From Octopus vulgaris (Eukaryota), in assembly GCA_951406725.2 (NCBI GenBank), contig OX597818.1, positions 104,036,001-104,100,000 of the forward strand: 64,000 nucleotides of DNA, given 5' to 3'. The notes below the pieces were generated by a model. It saw only the letters and a list, made by a program, of their open reading frames with translations. It searched no databases and had not been told where the DNA came from. Both the position numbers and the translations under genes were made by a program. This document shows, one piece after another, positions 14,331 to 64,000 of this stretch (position 1 is its first letter; every line of letters begins with the position of its first letter).

Positions 14331-14333
<3 letters not shown>

Positions 14334-14480
14334 TTATTTACATTATTTAGATTTGACGGATATTTGTCTTCATCGTGTTTGTTGTTAACAACAAACAAGA
14401 TGTGGACAAATATCCATCAGATGTAATAAATGTAAATAAAGAAAATAATATACATAATTCCTCATCTCTTAAATATAGAA
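14331..14480. mobile_element. Family E minimal foldback (tails only)
   Basis: Inverted tails joined at the GTTAAC palindrome near 14385. Confidence 0.75.
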
Positions 14481-15270
14481 CTATATATATAAGTGTATAT
14501 GAAATTATATTCATATGCATATGTATATAAGTGCATATTTCTACATGTGTTTGTCTATATATACATACATACATGCATACATATATACATATATACATAT
14601 GCACACATATTTAACATTCATACATACATGTATATAAGCAAATATATTTGTGCATGCGGGCGTATGTATGCATTTATACATGCATAATTAAGTGAATGGT
14701 GTTCGCGTGTGAAAGTTTGTATGTGTGCGTGTGTATGTGTATTGGGGTAAAAATTATTTACGTTACTGGTTACTTCAATATATCCAAACGAGTGACAGTT
14801 TAATCACCAGATACATTAGGATGGAGATTGTCTTGGGAGCTCTTGGCTATAGGAAATAGAATTAACGCCGGGAAATATAGTAATTGATAATTATAATATT
14901 CAGATCGAATTTTAGGGTTTAGACGGTCACAGAGAATGAAGGTTAAAGTTTAGTGGTGATGGTAGTCGAATGTTTATTCTTAATTAGATAAGTCTATTTA
15001 TATATGGGAAATATTGGCCCAATAGAAATAACTTCTGCGTTATGTTGTAGTTAAGTTGTCTTACTGTAATTCGTATTTAAATGGATGTTAGCATAAATGC
15101 GAACAAACTTGCTTACAAGCATATTGATATGGATCTACTTATGCAAGCATAGTCACACTTATTAATACGCAGAAAGACACTTATATATATGAATATAAAA
15201 TGATGCAGACACACATAGTAATGCAGTATTATATTTACCAACACGAAGATACATATCCGGTACATACATA

Positions 15271-16767: not shown

Positions 16768-16874
16768 TTAACCACTAGGCCATATGCCCATGGGCATATG
16801 GCGTAGTGGTTAAGGGCGAGGGCTACTAACCCCCAAGATTCCGATTTCGATTCCAGGCAGTGACCTGAGTAGTA

Positions 16875-16919
<45 letters not shown>

Positions 16920-17100
16920 GCATCGAAAAATACCTTAGGAATGAGGACCCAGGTTCGAAATTTTCCCACGTCACCTGATGAAACTTAGAGCGTATATCAG
17001 CTGAAACGTTGTGTTAACAAGAAAGAAAATGAAGACAAATATCCGTCAAATGAAAATAATTTAAATAATGTGCATAATTCCTCATCTCTTAAATATAGAA
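16768..17100 (+). mobile_element. Family E: tRNA-like head + (TAA)n + hammerhead + tail, with palindromic head junction
   Basis: A box TGGCGTAGTGG, B box TTCGATTCC, (TAA)n, CTGATGA at 16975, GAAACGTT at 17003, tail ending CTCATCTCTTAAATATAGAA. 23-bp inverted arms centred at 16790/16791. Confidence 0.8.
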
Positions 17101-17127
17101 CTCTATATCTCCCTCTCCCTCTCTCTC

Positions 17128-33278: not shown

Positions 33279-34432
33279 TGCGTTCTGGCGCCGACGCTCT
33301 TCGGAATTTTCTTCTCACTTGTCCTGTCCTATGCCTTCAGAACGTCCGACGACGGAGTGTTCCTCCACAGCAGGGCTGATGGTGGATTGTTCAATCTTGC
33401 GCGCCTCAGAGCTAAGACCAAAGTCCGTCAGGTGCTGATCAGAGAGATCCTCTTTGCTGACGATGCCGCCCTAACATCACACAACCAACCGGGTCTCCAG
33501 AGGCTGGTCAGCTCCCTGGCGGATGCCTGCCAAGAGTTCGGCCTTACCATCAGCCTGAAAAAGACAGAGATCATGGGCCAGGACGTCGGAGGGGTCCCCA
33601 GCATCAGTGTCGGCGACCACAGCTTGCAGGTGGTGAACGAGTTCACTTACCTGGGATCGATGGTCTCCAGCACCTGTCCCTCGAGCCGGAGCTGAACAGA
33701 CGGATTCGGAAGGCTGCTGCTGCCATGGCTAAGCTCTCCAGGAGAGTGTGGGAAAACAACATGCTCACAATAACCACCAAGATCGCAGTGTACCGAGCCT
33801 GCGTGCTGAGCACCCTACTCTACGGCAGTGAGAGCTGGACAACACACACCCGGCAGGAATGCCGCCTCAGCGGCTTCCACATGCGGTGTCTTCGACGGAT
33901 ACTTGGCATCTCCTGGAAGGACCGAGTACCAAACGGAGTCATCCTGGAACAGACTAATATGCCAAGCATGTATGCCCTCCTGGCTCGGACACGTCTGCTG
34001 CATGCAGGACGGTCGCATGCCTAAAGACATCCTGTACAGCGAACTCACCACGGGATCCCGACCCAAAGGACGTCCACAGCTACGATACAGGGACGTGTGC
34101 AAGCGCGACCTGAGGACTGCCAACATATGTGTGGGCACGTGGGAGGAAACAGCTGCTGACCGCTCTGTCTGGCGTCGGACGGTGAGGAAAGGCGTTTCCA
34201 TGGCTGAGGAGAGGAGAGCACAGCTGTGGTTGGACAGGCGGGACAGGAGGAGGACAACTGCAGCAACACCCCACACGTACCCATCGATGTTCGTGTGCAG
34301 CAAATGTACCAAGGACTGCCACTCTAGAATTGGACTGTTCAGTCACAGCAGACGCTGCACATCATCAAAGTAGGCCCCACCCTTGGCGCAACCCATTGTC
34401 TATCAAGACAGACGGGGAAAAAGAAGAAAAAA

Positions 34433-35255: not shown

Positions 35256-35412
35256 ATATTAAATTAGAGACAAAACCACTATTAGGCAAATCATACAATG
35301 AAAAACTTAAGCCAATTCATAAGAATATTTAAATAATATAAATTAAATAATCTTATGTATTGGCTTAAGTTTTTCATTGTATGATTTGCCTAATAGTGGT
35401 TTTGTCTCTAAT

Positions 35413-42769: not shown

Positions 42770-42930
42770 TCTATATTTTTGAGATAAGGAATTATGTATA
42801 TTATTTACATTATTTACATTGGACGGATATGTGTCCTTATCTTGTTTCTTATTACCACAAATCAGCCGAAACGTTGCCACAACAACAAAACGAGAACACA
42901 TAACCGTCAAAGGTAAATAATGTAGATAAA
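42770..42930. mobile_element. Family E decayed foldback
   Basis: Inverted tail, then ATCAGCCGAAACGTTG and a direct tail. Confidence 0.7.
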
Positions 42931-51208: not shown

Positions 51209-51455
51209 GGCGGCGAGCTGCCTGAATCGTGAGTACGCCAGGTGAAATTCTTAGCAGTCTGTCTTTAGGTTCTGAGTTCAAACATCCGCCGAGAATTGTT
51301 AACGCGCCTGACAAAATGATTAGCGGCATTTCATCCGTTCTGCATTCTGTGTTCAAATTCTGCCGTGATCGACTTTGCCCATCATTCTTTCGGGTTCGAT
51401 AAATTAAGTACCAATTGTGTATTGTGTACGAGGATTGATCTGATCGAATGCCCCC
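51209..51455 (+). mobile_element. SINE family A with duplicated head
   Basis: Two successive head/B-box segments. Confidence 0.7.
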
Positions 51456-51585
51456 TGGGTTCCCATTCCTAAGGTATTTTTCTATGTTGTTGTTGTTATT
51501 GTTGTTGTTGTTGTTGTTGTTCTTCTTCTTCTTCTTCTTCTTCTTATTCTTCTTCTTCTTATTATTATTATTATTATTATTATTA

Positions 51586-55346: not shown

Positions 55347-56545
55347 GTTTCCGACTTTTTTATAAATTTTGGAAATTGTTGCGTTTTTACATTTTTCAAT
55401 CATTTTGGAATCTATTTAGTTTTTTTTTCTAGATAATTTTAGTTCACTTTTGTTTATTTTCAGATCATTAAAATGGAATGTCAAGTTAAGAAAAACGAGC
55501 ATTTTGTACACCTTCTTTTTGCTTTTAATAAAGGTTCTAAGATCGCAAAAGCTGCTCGCGATCTTTGTGCTGTTGTATGGAGAGGGAGCAATATCTGAAA
55601 GAACCACTCGTGATTGGTATGCCAAGTTCAAAGATGGAAATTTTCACCTCAAAACGCACCTCGTTCTGGCCGTCCAGTTGAGTTCCATGAAGAGCGATCA
55701 AACCAAATTTTGCACGTAAATTCTCGTCAAACGACAAGGGAACTGACAGAGAAAATGGAATGCTTCCAAACAGCTATAGACAAGTATCTTCACATGATTG
55801 GAAAGTTTCAGAAACAGGGAACATGTGTTCCGCATGCTTTAGGTGACAACAACAAAAATCAACGAGCCACAATCTCTGCTGTTTTACTTGCTCGTCACCG
55901 GTCAACTCATGGACAGAAGCAACGTTTCCTTTACCGAATCGTTACGGGCGACGAGAAATGGCGCATGTACATCAATATGAAGCAGCGTAAGGAACGGCTT
56001 AGCCCTGGTAAACAAGCGACACCGCGCGTGAAACAAGATCTTCATCCGCGTAAAACGATGTTGTGCGTATCGTGGGACTGGGAAGGGATTATCCATTACG
56101 AATTGCTTGAACGGAACCAAACGGTCAACGCGGAACTCTATCTTCAACAGATGGACCGACTCATCACGGCTATTCAAGACAAAATCCCTAATCGGCAGCA
56201 TGATATTCTGCTGCACGACAACACCCGCCCTCATATCAACAATATGACTAAGGAAGCCATTCAAACGCATGGTTGGGAAGTGCTGCTACACTCGCCGTCC
56301 TTTCCTGAATTGGCACCAACGGATTTCCACCACTTTCGTTCCCTTTCAAATTCTATGCGCGGAGTTTCGTTCAATACTGATGCAGATTTCTACCAACGAA
56401 GTATTGCAAATCTTGTTGAACGTCGGGAAGAAGTTGTAAACAACAAGGGTGAATACATTATTGATTAATTAGATGTTATTTTTTATTAAAACTTTTTAAA
56501 AACTTTAATTTGAAAAACTGCGGGAACTTACTTGTAAACCCAATA
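55341..56545 (+). mobile_element. Mariner (DD34D) transposon, near full length, defective
   Basis: Right TIR-like end AAAACTGCGGGAACTTACTTGTAAACCCAATA; left TIR eroded into (TA)n; transposase inside. Confidence 0.92.
55473..56468 (+). pseudogene. Mariner transposase pseudogene
   Basis: MECQVKKNEHF start, frameshifts near 55575 and 55652. Motifs PRSGRP, CVPHAL (WVPHEL-like), TGDEKW, HDNTRPH, SFPELAPTDF (YSPDLAPSD-like) and GEYIID stop. Apparent short deletion near 56385. Confidence 0.93.
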
Positions 56546-57294: not shown

Positions 57295-57504
57295 TATAAT
57301 CAAAAATAAGCAACAAGAATAACTTCGGTAATTTGGTACGATCGTTTCACGCTACATCATAATATGAAAATTATGTATTAATGGGAAACCTCTATTAATG
57401 GCTGATGAACTGTTGTAATACTTACAATATTTAATAAAATAATGTAGCGTGAAACGATCGTACCAAATTACCGAAGTTATTCTTGTTGCTTATTTTTGAT
57501 TATA
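57295..57504. repeat. 63-bp perfect inverted repeat containing the hammerhead
   Basis: 57295-57357 is the reverse complement of 57442-57504. Confidence 0.92.
57396..57470 (+). ncRNA. Type I hammerhead ribozyme motif, canonical core
   Basis: CTGATGA 57402-57408; AC/GT-closed stem II region with internal TGTTGTAA/TTACAATA hairpin; GAAAC-GATC-GTA 57451-57462; stem I TGG/CCA. Confidence 0.75.
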
Positions 57505-60032: not shown

Positions 60033-60162
60033 TTGTATTCTTCAGAATTATGTTAAGGGCACACGTACTCGGGGAATTTTCAAATCCTGAGACTTTAATT
60101 CAGTAGTGTGAGCAAGTAAATCTACATTGTTGAAACTCACTGAAATTAGGATGTACAATACA

Positions 60163-60391
60163 CTTCTATATTTAAGAGATGAGGAATTATGTACGTTATT
60201 TACATTATTTACATTATTTACATTTGAAGGATATTTGTCTTTATCTTGTTTGATGTTAATACAACGTTTCGGCTGATTTACTCTGATGAAGGCTGGAAGT
60301 TATATCAACCGAAACGTTCTGTTAACAAGAAGCAAGATGAGGACAAATATCCGTCAAATGTAAATAATATAAATAATGGGAATAATGTACA
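60163..60391. mobile_element. Family E short foldback (two tails, central deletion, one hammerhead core)
   Basis: Inverted tails around 60282; CTGATGA 60283-60289, GGCTG/CAACC stem, GAAACGTT at 60311. Confidence 0.8.
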
Positions 60392-60407
60392 TTAGATTAT
60401 AGAGTTT

Positions 60408-60612
60408 CATATTTGAGAGACAAGGAATTACGTACATTATTTACCTTATTTACAATTGACGGATATTTGTCCTCATCTTGCTTCTTGTTGACTGAACTAT
60501 ATTTCGGCTGATATATCCTGCAACCGTCATCAGGTGTCTTGGGGAAATTTCGAACCTGGGTACTCATTCCTGAGGTATTTTTTTATGCTGTTGCTGTTGT
60601 TGTTGTTGTTAC

Positions 60613-60707
<95 letters not shown>

Positions 60708-60799
60708 TCACGAGCATATGGCATAGTGGTTGAGATCGCGGGCTACTAACCCCAAGATTCCGTGTTCGATTCCAGGCAGTGTCCTGAATAATAATAAGA

Positions 60800-60862
<63 letters not shown>

Positions 60863-60863
60863 G

Positions 60864-60928
<65 letters not shown>
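60408..60928. mobile_element. Family E head-to-head dimer, right arm interrupted by the Dong LINE
   Basis: Minus arm 60408-60710 (tail, hammerhead 60501-60540, TTA repeat). Plus arm tRNA-like head 60711-60787 with GTTCGATTCC, then (TAA)n. Confidence 0.8.
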
Positions 60929-60930
60929 TA

Positions 60931-63900
60931 ACAAAAAAAATACAGACGAATATAGATCTCCTAGCCTTAAGAAGCTGCGCTATGAGCAATGCTTACATGT
61001 AGAGAACCCTAAACTGACAGATCCATCTCCTAATATAAGAATGGAAGCTCGTCATGCTTCAAGGTCAACAAATCAAACAATAAACCGCATTGGTCGTTGC
61101 GCGGATTACATAAGACCACGTACCCGAAAATTGAACCAAATTCTGATTGAAAAATCAGCTACTGGATCAAATCTTCCCAACACACAGGAGCTGGACGTAC
61201 CCCACAACCGGAATATTCCAACAGATGGCCATCAATGCTCATCACCAAATAATCAAAAGAAAAAGAAGGAAAAATGGTCTAGGGAAGATAATAAAGAAGT
61301 TCTTGAGGCCTTCTACCATGCCATATATTTCCCCACAGATAAATCTAACACTGTACAAGCATGCTTAAACTGGAGACAGAAACACCCTGAAGTAAGACCC
61401 TAAATAGACAGTAACAAACTTGCCAACGTCAGAAGAAACATTATAAAAAAATTACTGACTGAAGTAGAGATTGATCAAGTTAGACAAGCAATATCGGATA
61501 AAATGAACAAAGCTGCAGCTAGAGAAGATAATACAGAGGAAATAATTATAGACCAGCCCAGGGCTGATAAAAACGAAGAGAGGATTGAAAGAGTTAGTAT
61601 AAGTGATAGGCAAAGTGAAACCAATCATAAACACTAAGACAGATGAGCATCAAATAGATAAAGAAAGTCACACAAATATTGACCCAACAGAACTACATGA
61701 GCTAAAAAATCAAATCATGATTGAATGGCTGAGAATTAAAGAAACCAGCATGGATGAACGTGATACACTCCCTAAAATCCGCAACTCTAACCAAAAAATG
61801 AAAATAATTGGTAAAATCCGGCTTGCACTTAAGGATATAATTTCAGCTAATGATGTTGATATCACAAACCTCAACCACCTATACTATGCATCCGCGAAAA
61901 TCTGAACGACCCTATGTGGTGTAAAGATTAGAAAACGGCAACATTCCCACAAAAAGCCTTCTTGGCAAGAGCGTCTGCAACAACAAATTAAAATATTTAG
62001 ATCTGTCATTGAATATTTGAAAAGCCTCAAGGCTCACAAGACTACCAAACCTACAAAAACCCAAAAATTACTGAAAAAATACAATATCAAAAATATACTT
62101 GATATTGATGCCACCATAGAAACCATCAAACAAAAGGTATCTGCCAAAGCTGCCCGCATAGCGAGGTATGAAAAGCGTGTTAGATTTTTCAAGGACAACA
62201 ACATGTTCAAAAATAACCCCAAGAATTTTTACAGGAAGATAGGAAAAACAGCGTTTACTGCAAGGTCTGTACCATCAAAAGAAGAAGTGCAGGGATTTTG
62301 GAATAAAATCTGGGCAGAAGAAAAAACACACAACGAAAAGGCCCCTGGATTGACAGAATATCTACAGAACTGGACCCCTTGGAAGAGCAAAAGTGGGAGG
62401 GTGTCAAGGTAGAAGATATAAGATCTGCTCTCAGGAGGTCAAGCAAATGGAAGTCTCCAGGAAAGGATAAAATTCCTAACTTCTGGCTGAATGCCTTCCC
62501 AGAGAGCCATGAACTGCTAACAGAACTGTACAATGATGTTTTGCAACAACCTAGTAGGATGCTACCTTGGCTAGTTAATGGGTTAACATTCCTGCTTCCA
62601 AAAAGTGAAGAAACAAATGAACCAAAAAACTATAGACCCATAACCTGCTTAACAACTATGTACAAAACGCTAACATCTGTCCTGACGGAATATACCTATA
62701 GTTTTTTAACAGACAGCAGCATATTCCCTAATGAAAAGAAAGGATGTAAACGTGGATCCTACGGCTGTAAAGACCAACTACTCATCAATAAGATGATCTT
62801 AGAAGATTGTCACAAACGACACATAAACTTATCAATAGCCTGGATAGACTATAAAAAGGCTTTTGATAGCCTACCACATAGCTGGATTAGGAAATGCCTA
62901 GAAATGTATAAGATAGCACCTACTCTGCGAAACTTCTTGACTGTAAGTATGAGATCATGGAGAACCACACTAACTCTGAACAGTGACAATGAATCCCTAA
63001 ATGCTGGTGATGTAAAAATTTCGTGTGGCATTTTCCAGGGTGACTCACTGTCACCACTCCTCTTTTGTTTATCCTTAATACCTCTCTCAAAGCTGCTCAA
63101 TGATGCGCAGTACGGGTATAAAATGTTTGATAAAAATATAAATCATCTCATTTACATGGATGATTTAAAGCTTTTTGCAAAAAATTACCAACAACTCAAG
63201 GGCTTACTAGCGATAATCAAACAATTCAGTGACGACATCAGAATGCAATTCGGCCTCGATAAATGTGCAAAAGCTACCTTTATCAAAGGAAAAATGACAG
63301 AAACATCTAACGTTAACCTTGACCATCAGAATGTCATAAAAGAACTAGACCCAGCGGAGAGCTACAAGTACCTAGGGGTAATTGAATGGAACGGAATAAG
63401 GCATTCAGAGATGAAGGAAAGGATCAGGAGAGAATGCTATCGAAGAGTGAGAGCAATACTCAAGACAGAGCTGAATGCAAGAAACAGGATCGAAGCGATC
63501 AATGCATTAGCCATACCAGTCGTGACTTACAGTTTCAATATTGTTAACTGGTCAATTACTGAAATATGTCAGCTCGACAGAAAAATAAGGAAACTGTTGA
63601 CAATGCATAGAATGCACCACCCTAAGGCAGATACAGAACGACTCTATCTGCCAAGAAAAGAGGGAGGCCGTGGTCTTTTGCAACTGGCAATAACAATGAA
63701 GATTGCTACAATTGGCCTAGACACCTACCTGAAAAAGTCTGAGGACTGGATGTTAAAACTTGTCTCAAAACATGAAAACAAGAAAGCATCATACTCAGTC
63801 ACAAAACAGGCAAAAGAATATCTAAGTGAATTCCGAATACAACCTATTTCGGAATTAGAGATAGACATACAAGAAACAAGCACAGAAAAAGCTAGGCGCA

Positions 63901-64000
63901 TGAAAACCCGTGCCAAAACTGCGGCCTTAGATATTCTGAATAATAAATGGCAAGAAAAACCTCTCTATGGCAAATACCCAAAGAGAGCGAATAATGCAGA
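60931..64000 (+). mobile_element. R4/Dong-clade non-LTR retrotransposon (RLE class), 5' part, runs off window end
   Basis: Begins right after (TAA)n 60787-60928, with ATG at 61041. RT motifs KWKSPGKDKIPNFWL, NYRPITCL, WIDYKKAFDSLPHSW, GIFQGDSLSPLLF, YMDDLKLF (TAC at 63153), YKYLG and RLYLPRKEGGRGL. Dong elements are known to target TAA repeats. Confidence 0.92.
61041..64000 (+). pseudogene. Disrupted LINE ORF; RT domain in an uninterrupted frame 62346-64000
   Basis: Stops at 61401 and 61903, frameshifts near 61450 and 62345. Hand translation from TGG 62346 gives 551 codons with no stop to the window end. Confidence 0.88.

Follow-up and report, generated by a model that had tools for sequence, protein, structure and literature searches.

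The window, by which we mean the whole 64-kb stretch of DNA analysed here, holds copies of a dispersed repeat, family E, whose unit consists of a tRNA-like head, a (TAA)n microsatellite, a minimal hammerhead and the start of an ORF (Table 1). BLAST with the unit at 16791-17100, followed by refinement with a family consensus, recovered all six loci of an earlier note on this DNA at about the places given there, and reversed-sequence controls returned no matches at the scores used. The palindromes have differing centres (14386/7, 16790/1, 42860/1, 60283/4 and 60711/2). The head junction at 16790/1 lies exactly where it had been placed, with an inverted arm of just 23 nt, and the lone fragment, previously given as 51455-51490, is a single arm. 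The foldback centred on 14386/7 turns on a native palindrome of the repeat, and the one at 42770 has an exact 8-nt duplication on both sides. No target duplication was found at the copies starting at 16768 and 14331, whose flanks are simple repeat.

From 60161 onwards lies an alternating array of six arms, split by a LINE and atypical for family E. Its first foldback (60161-60386) folds at -93.6 kcal/mol (z = -14), a value matched by none of 200 shuffles. The segment 60408-60928, described earlier as a near-complete dimer, is indeed palindromic but is not near complete: just one head falls within it, the left arm begins at head position 69, and the right arm consists there of head and (TAA)n, the palindrome in common being mostly microsatellite. 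In arm B the 5' strand of hammerhead stem I is missing, lost at the junction. Arms B and C stand tail-to-tail, have three variants in common and look as if they had been copied from each other or converted. Arm C passes the usual long end by about 11 nt into the ORF start (window 60283-60591). The arms are about 80% identical to each other. We found no target duplication around the array, and its junctions are bridged by no listed short-read contig, these contigs being fragmented.

Table 1. Family E copies and the inserted LINE in the 64-kb window and its continuation (L032)
Feature	Position	Strand	Remarks
Foldback on GTTAAC	14331..14482	.	Tailless arm 14331-14390 (-), tailed arm 14383-14482 (+)
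23-nt head fold-back	16768..16790	-	About native GCCC-NN-GGGC palindrome
Complete short unit	16791..17102	+	Head, (TAA)n, body, tailed end
Hammerhead motif of short unit	16970-17015	+	Predicted cut after 17010
Foldback	42770..42929	.	Tailed arm 42770-42860 (-), tailless arm 42861-42929 (+)
Lone fragment, body 1-37	51454..51490	-	Adjoins microsatellite
Arm A	60161..60284	-	pLTR body 73-187, ends at tailed (long) 3' site
Arm B	60283..60386	+	Covers pLTR body 59-162 up to the tailless (short) 3' site; faces A head-to-head
Hammerhead core, arm B	60283..60318	+	CTGATGA to GAAACGTT; motif compared with available part of PMC4209133
Arm C	60389..60711	-	Head 69-77, (TAA)n, body 1-186, ~11 nt of ORF start
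Arm D, tRNA-like head	60712..60787	+	A-box-like 60719-60729, B-box-like 60764-60773 (presumed box consensus)
Arm D, (TAA)n from head to body	60788..60930	+	
(TAA)n-targeting LINE inside arm D	60931..64000, L032:1-925	+	~4 kb; ends ~925 nt beyond window
Arm D resumption	L032:939-1122		Body 3-187, starting 939 nt past window end
Third foldback	L032:1123-1320		Directly after resumed arm D

The LINE that landed in the (TAA)n of arm D is near full length, has an RT frame with Pfam RVT_1 and may be of the R4/Dong type. Other family E copies (L011, L276) contain fragments of its 3' end within their microsatellite, which makes this microsatellite a landing site for the LINE. Elsewhere in the window, a 210-bp palindrome at 57295-57504, 81% self-complementary, has no relation to family E, and a 284-aa frame at 55614-56468 carries a Transposase_1 (partial DDE) domain. 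The fragment at 33461-34373 resembles the 3' end of a LINE ORF, which we take to be RTE-type. An AT-rich hairpin of about 120 nt at 35277-35398 was seen only through a sub-threshold match to a miRNA model.

Family E is almost certainly the pseudo-LTR (pLTR) of an abundant endonuclease-bearing (EN+) Penelope-like element (PLE), inverted anew at each insertion. In the genome (2.8 Gb, 227 contigs), one of the 30 best matches to the body (L023) lies next to a decayed RT ORF, and the 3' end of this ORF passes directly into the family E head. This ORF as a query yielded 3,056 and 2,426 candidates, and in the loci L151-L200 an RT ORF is joined straight to the head. One of them, L183, is full length, reading body, ORF, head, (TAA)n and body, with a pLTR at both ends; the 5' pLTR is also present in L197. 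The body reads in frame with the ORF, which begins inside the pLTR. A relative of 847 aa, 55% identical, begins with a peptide resembling the body-coded one, a resemblance seen by eye in the N-terminus of P0003. The relatives are proteins of 820-850 aa with RT domains and, in some, GIY-YIG. The 569-aa frame of L194 gave RVT_1 at E = 2.7e-6, just under the cut-off, and matches P0069, in which GIY-YIG is above the cut-off, at 40% identity across 575 aligned positions. No direct GIY-YIG match was obtained on the decayed copies L194 or L171, and no CX2-5CxxC linker before the endonuclease, a linker that the Penelope/Poseidon clade lacks, was seen, by eye only, in L194.

In sequence and fold, the pLTR body holds a candidate minimal type I hammerhead, with the core, stems I and II and a palindromic stem III, a form that has been described for PLEs (PMC4209133, in the part available). 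Among the best 150 of 206 Rfam matches on the window and those listed of 119 on seven loci, all were microsatellite-driven and of miRNA type, with no tRNA or hammerhead. Body positions 135-182 (e.g. window 17051-17098) form an AT-rich segment just ahead of the long end with GT...AG borders, like an intron of about 50 nt, kept in all copies seen.

A 17-mer anchor in the body occurs exactly 11,607 times genome-wide. In an unselected sample of 118 stretches of 10 kb (1.18 Mb), placed blind to the repeat, 16 clusters were merged by eye into 14 insertions, which extrapolates roughly to 30,000 family E insertions in the genome; non-CpG divergence from the consensus is 4.3%. ORF sequence accompanies only 2 of the 14 insertions. 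This scarcity, like the discrete start at the tRNA-like head, is what would be expected if the short copies were a separate tRNA-derived SINE with a borrowed PLE pLTR, mobilised in trans. We consider such a SINE quite improbable, since the head is integral to the 3' end of the autonomous element in many ORF-bearing copies and the short copies showed no sequence of their own. It is possible that short copies serve as secondary sources. Two further classes were rejected. The unit is an ORF start and most clusters in the sample are inverted pairs or single arms, as opposed to a non-LTR retrozyme; outer ends that differ by the tail, together with varying centres, speak against a MITE or foldback DNA transposon.

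The head aligns with tRNA-Arg and tRNA-Thr genes of this genome (z up to 7.7 against shuffles) and bears A- and B-box-like motifs, judged by what we take to be the box consensus. It is no intact tRNA, ARAGORN finding neither a tRNA nor a cloverleaf in the head consensus. It is contiguous with the end of the PLE ORF in 478 exact 20-mer matches, besides L183. Among arms at risk, 29 of 31 end within -8..+6 of the head, stops being about 30-60 times as frequent there as in head or body, and in a separate sample the ORF is absent upstream of 51 of 66 heads, the other 15 continuing into it. Since most arms that reach the head stop there, the template appears to have a discrete 5' end, and Pol III transcription is suggested. 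Over 831 codons the sense strand is free of T4 runs, of which 3.0 were expected (P = 0.023, codon shuffle), an absence that is weaker under Markov nulls (P = 0.08 and 0.22). On these sequence features we lean slightly towards transcription by Pol III from the head. One short-read run, guessed to be RNA, holds family E contigs, from which strand and start are not readable. The tRNA-like head on the pLTR appears to set family E apart among EN+ PLEs. No tRNA-headed pLTR was found in the openly accessible literature searched; family E may be present in Repbase, Dfam, subscription journals or the PMC13282606 supplement and repeat library.

Genome-wide, exact pairs of the 17-mer anchor within 260 nt are head-to-head in 337 cases and tail-to-tail in 5, one of which is the B/C join of the focal array. 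The fetched loci comprised 269 clusters, or 230 unique ones after removal of 39 duplicates: 144 simple two-arm, 79 single-armed and 7 complex. Near-identical copies (L252, L253 and L254; L284 and L288) with a common junction lie close together on contig C1 and are probably segmental duplicates. Leaving out 5 edge loci gave 139 simple pairs, a selected mix in which 45 loci came through a pattern demanding two arms. Exact flank duplications of at least 9 nt bracket 45 of these 139 pairs, compared with 0.9% of 1,500 mismatched flank pairs, so the target duplications sought by the earlier note are present; their length is 12-13 nt in 14 of the 21 cases with an intact end motif. They occur at 43 of 91 pairs with one tailed and one tailless arm and at 2 of 50 single arms, and one of these two carries an 11-nt second arm. 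As duplications are almost confined to two-armed copies, the two-arm unit is the normal insertion product. A preponderance of single arms, which had been named as counting against the foldbacks, is borderline, 7 of the 14 unselected insertions being two-armed.

An assembly artefact is an unlikely cause of the family-wide pattern, given the arm identity noted above, the duplications flanking two-arm units and short-read contigs of two other runs (55 and 64 contigs) with an inverted head just ahead of the palindrome. If read through, a foldback is predicted to form an RNA hairpin. The A-to-I editing that had been proposed as a check left no excess, A>G (644/34,176) and T>C (377/20,011) changes occurring at an equal rate, and no hyper-edited arm was seen among the top-ranked copies.

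The 3' ends of the arms fall into two classes, body 143-163 (tailless) and 184-187 (tailed), and at both of them loose ends also pile up in four short-read runs. The tail of 30-45 nt is carried by one arm and absent from the other. In 91 of the 139 simple pairs a tailed arm is joined to a tailless one; in 0 pairs are both arms tailed, in 10 both are tailless, and in 38 an end lies at neither site. Independence would give 50 mixed, 21 both-tailed and 30 both-tailless pairs. The focal array departs from this rule, a tail being present on C as well as D and missing from the two arms of the third pair. Genome-wide there are 18 both-tailed loci against 612 tail-to-body matches, i.e. the partner of a tailed arm is also tailed in about 6% of cases compared with about 45% expected.

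The two arms also have rare variants in common, 23 compared with 6.2 +/- 2.4 expected (at most 15 in 500 permutations), a count that comes from the only 19 loci with any such variant. Agreement at diagnostic sites is 46/51, 85/98 and 13/14. Gene conversion, or two RNAs from one source locus, could alternatively account for the common variants. The arms might more generally derive from two RNAs, one per subunit and maybe paired via a hammerhead of the dimer type, with one break end serving to prime each of them. Independent, overlapping arms would then need no strand displacement, the palindromic stem III is typical of dimer-acting hammerhead motifs (PMC4209133, available part), and the agreement at diagnostic sites is incomplete. 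We nevertheless find two RNAs very doubtful: both-tailed pairs would be expected at about 20% of loci and are in fact rare, and rare variants are common to the arms of a locus 3.7 times more often than between loci.

Tabulation of the junctions, as proposed in the earlier note, showed that they vary and are scattered over head, body and ORF, with 16 of 176 arm starts (88 loci) deep in the ORF. Arm starts cluster near body 93-98, as a template 5' end made by hammerhead cutting would give, and likewise at other short palindromes (body 38-49). About 700 loci fold at the head palindrome, an estimate from 1,039 matches and a hand count of 67 loci in the first 100. This single junction hot spot would suit one of the two origins that had been offered, a divergent dimer that carries two promoters and two ribozymes and acts as master, its copies later losing their centres. 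Such a master can hardly have existed. The parent is the ordinary pLTR-ORF-pLTR element seen in L183, so that the copies derive from the end repeat of a protein-coding element rather than from central deletions of a dimer. Junctions occur throughout body and ORF, and for ORF-reaching arms a dimer master is refuted; the outer ends are asymmetric, the 5' ends of the two arms are uncorrelated, and the hot spot is accounted for by the template 5' end together with the native palindrome. The other origin, inversion created at each insertion as with inverted PLE pLTRs, is the one borne out, the element itself being a PLE.

After removal of 3 loci with loose junctions from the 91 tailed and tailless pairs, 88 tight loci remain, whose 5' ends are staggered in 41, nested in 33 and symmetric in 14 (rho = 0.00); those with a duplication number 21, 11 and 9, respectively. 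In fold-back self-priming, one strand would be copied, and its 3' end would fold at a short palindrome and copy itself (PMC3846280, available part). Palindromes are subject to centre-break deletion, and the perfect hairpin would later lose its centre asymmetrically. The 14 symmetric junctions of 88, several on native palindromes, the fold at the head palindrome at about 700 loci against 478 with native ORF upstream, and the variants common to both arms all agree with this route. However, it predicts nested arms unless there was later deletion, and 41 of the 88 loci are staggered. Among head-start loci, 15 of 51 keep the centre with a fold of just 7-39 nt and 3 of 51 keep at least 40 nt, so that the loss must lie off-centre. 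Divergence at symmetric and asymmetric centres is 3.9% and 4.4% (P = 0.74), i.e. symmetric loci are not younger, and self-priming gives no reason for a short end that matches the second start site. We therefore regard self-priming as unlikely.

Overall, we think it quite probable that each foldback is one insertion, both arms of which were reverse-transcribed from one RNA at two fixed sites, with twin priming on that RNA as the likely route. The RNA would start at the tRNA-like head, probably at a Pol III promoter, and initiation in the first pLTR would give rise to many short copies. A protein dimer would nick both target strands 12-13 bp apart, and each 3' end would prime a cDNA on the same RNA, one at each start site, the two sites being 30-45 nt apart. 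The two cDNAs would each end independently, or on reaching the 5' end of the RNA, before being joined head-to-head via short inverted microhomologies. Before joining, one cDNA end would often fold back on the head palindrome, and this short fold-back may help to bridge the two cDNAs. The different central deletions reported earlier would then be two independent 5' truncations. Twin priming is a known source of LINE-1 5' inversions, where the RNA being copied is primed a second time from the opposite end of the target and microhomology joins the copies head-to-head. In LINE-1 the second site varies and there is hardly any overlap between the arms, whereas in family E both sites have fixed positions and the overlap is nearly complete.

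The published systems compared here are taken from the available parts of the reports cited. The protein of Poseidon_Ac (PAc), a Penelope/Poseidon PLE from the green anole, in vitro cuts and extends both target strands and begins reverse transcription at two internal positions, which mark the limits of the tail; a dimer is predicted for it (PMC11167929). Family E has in common with PAc an ORF, with RT and at its C-terminus a GIY-YIG-type domain, that starts within the pLTR, a hammerhead at the ORF start, AT-rich targets and two 3' ends bounding a tail of 30-40 nt. Start-site use by PAc in vitro was alike on both strands; the part of the report available gives no paired use and makes no mention of a tRNA-like head, inverted arms or stagger length (PMC11167929). 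Taken together, the anole in vitro data and the family E census make twin priming the simplest model, a mechanism read in the latter from genomic fossils about 4% diverged. Neither paired use of two start sites nor twin priming of PLEs was found in the openly accessible literature searched.

PLEs have already been described as having an inverted 5'-truncated copy, a tail on one side and palindromes at the junctions (PMC8557442 and PMC3846280, available parts). In Pen2/Pen2a of Adineta vaga, as in family E, an inverted 5'-truncated pLTR stands head-to-head, one end is tailed and junctions are palindromic (PMC3846280). The duplications around the whole Pen2/Pen2a unit measure 8-10 bp, compared with mostly 12-13 bp in family E, and self-priming on an antisense template was proposed there from few copies (PMC3846280); family E has tens of thousands of copies and half of its pairs are staggered. 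The Schistosoma repeats SM-alpha and Sj-alpha likewise combine a Pol III-type promoter with a hammerhead beside it in a short dispersed repeat (PMC6765202). They are described in the available part as non-coding and tandem, whereas family E forms the end repeat of an autonomous PLE together with its ORF start, and its insertions are head-to-head. With animal non-LTR retrozymes, family E shares the type I hammerhead and kinship to PLE pLTRs; these retrozymes are defined, in the available part, by ORF-less units in head-to-tail tandem (bioRxiv 10.64898/2026.07.22.740005).

The inverted foldbacks are thus a known PLE hallmark, measured here into a testable insertion mechanism. The origin of the tandem and inverted structures of Penelope elements has been named as unresolved (PMC8557442, available part), and the anole in vitro study left the later insertion steps open (PMC11167929, available part). 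A large fossil census yields sharp predictions for them, namely one long and one short start, one RNA, a 12-13-bp stagger and staggered arms. The two-armed copies, about 17,000 by rough extrapolation from 7 per 1.18 Mb, are open to mis-annotation as SINEs or MITEs and are potential double-stranded RNA if read through. More tentatively, and with less confidence than in either part of the mechanism above, family E may be an autonomous PLE in which a captured tRNA-derived Pol III promoter drives the whole 2.6-kb RNA and twin priming by a dimeric enzyme is obligate. Were this so, it would account for the inverted pLTRs and the one-sided tail of Penelope elements generally, and family E would be a protein-coding retrotransposon transcribed by Pol III.
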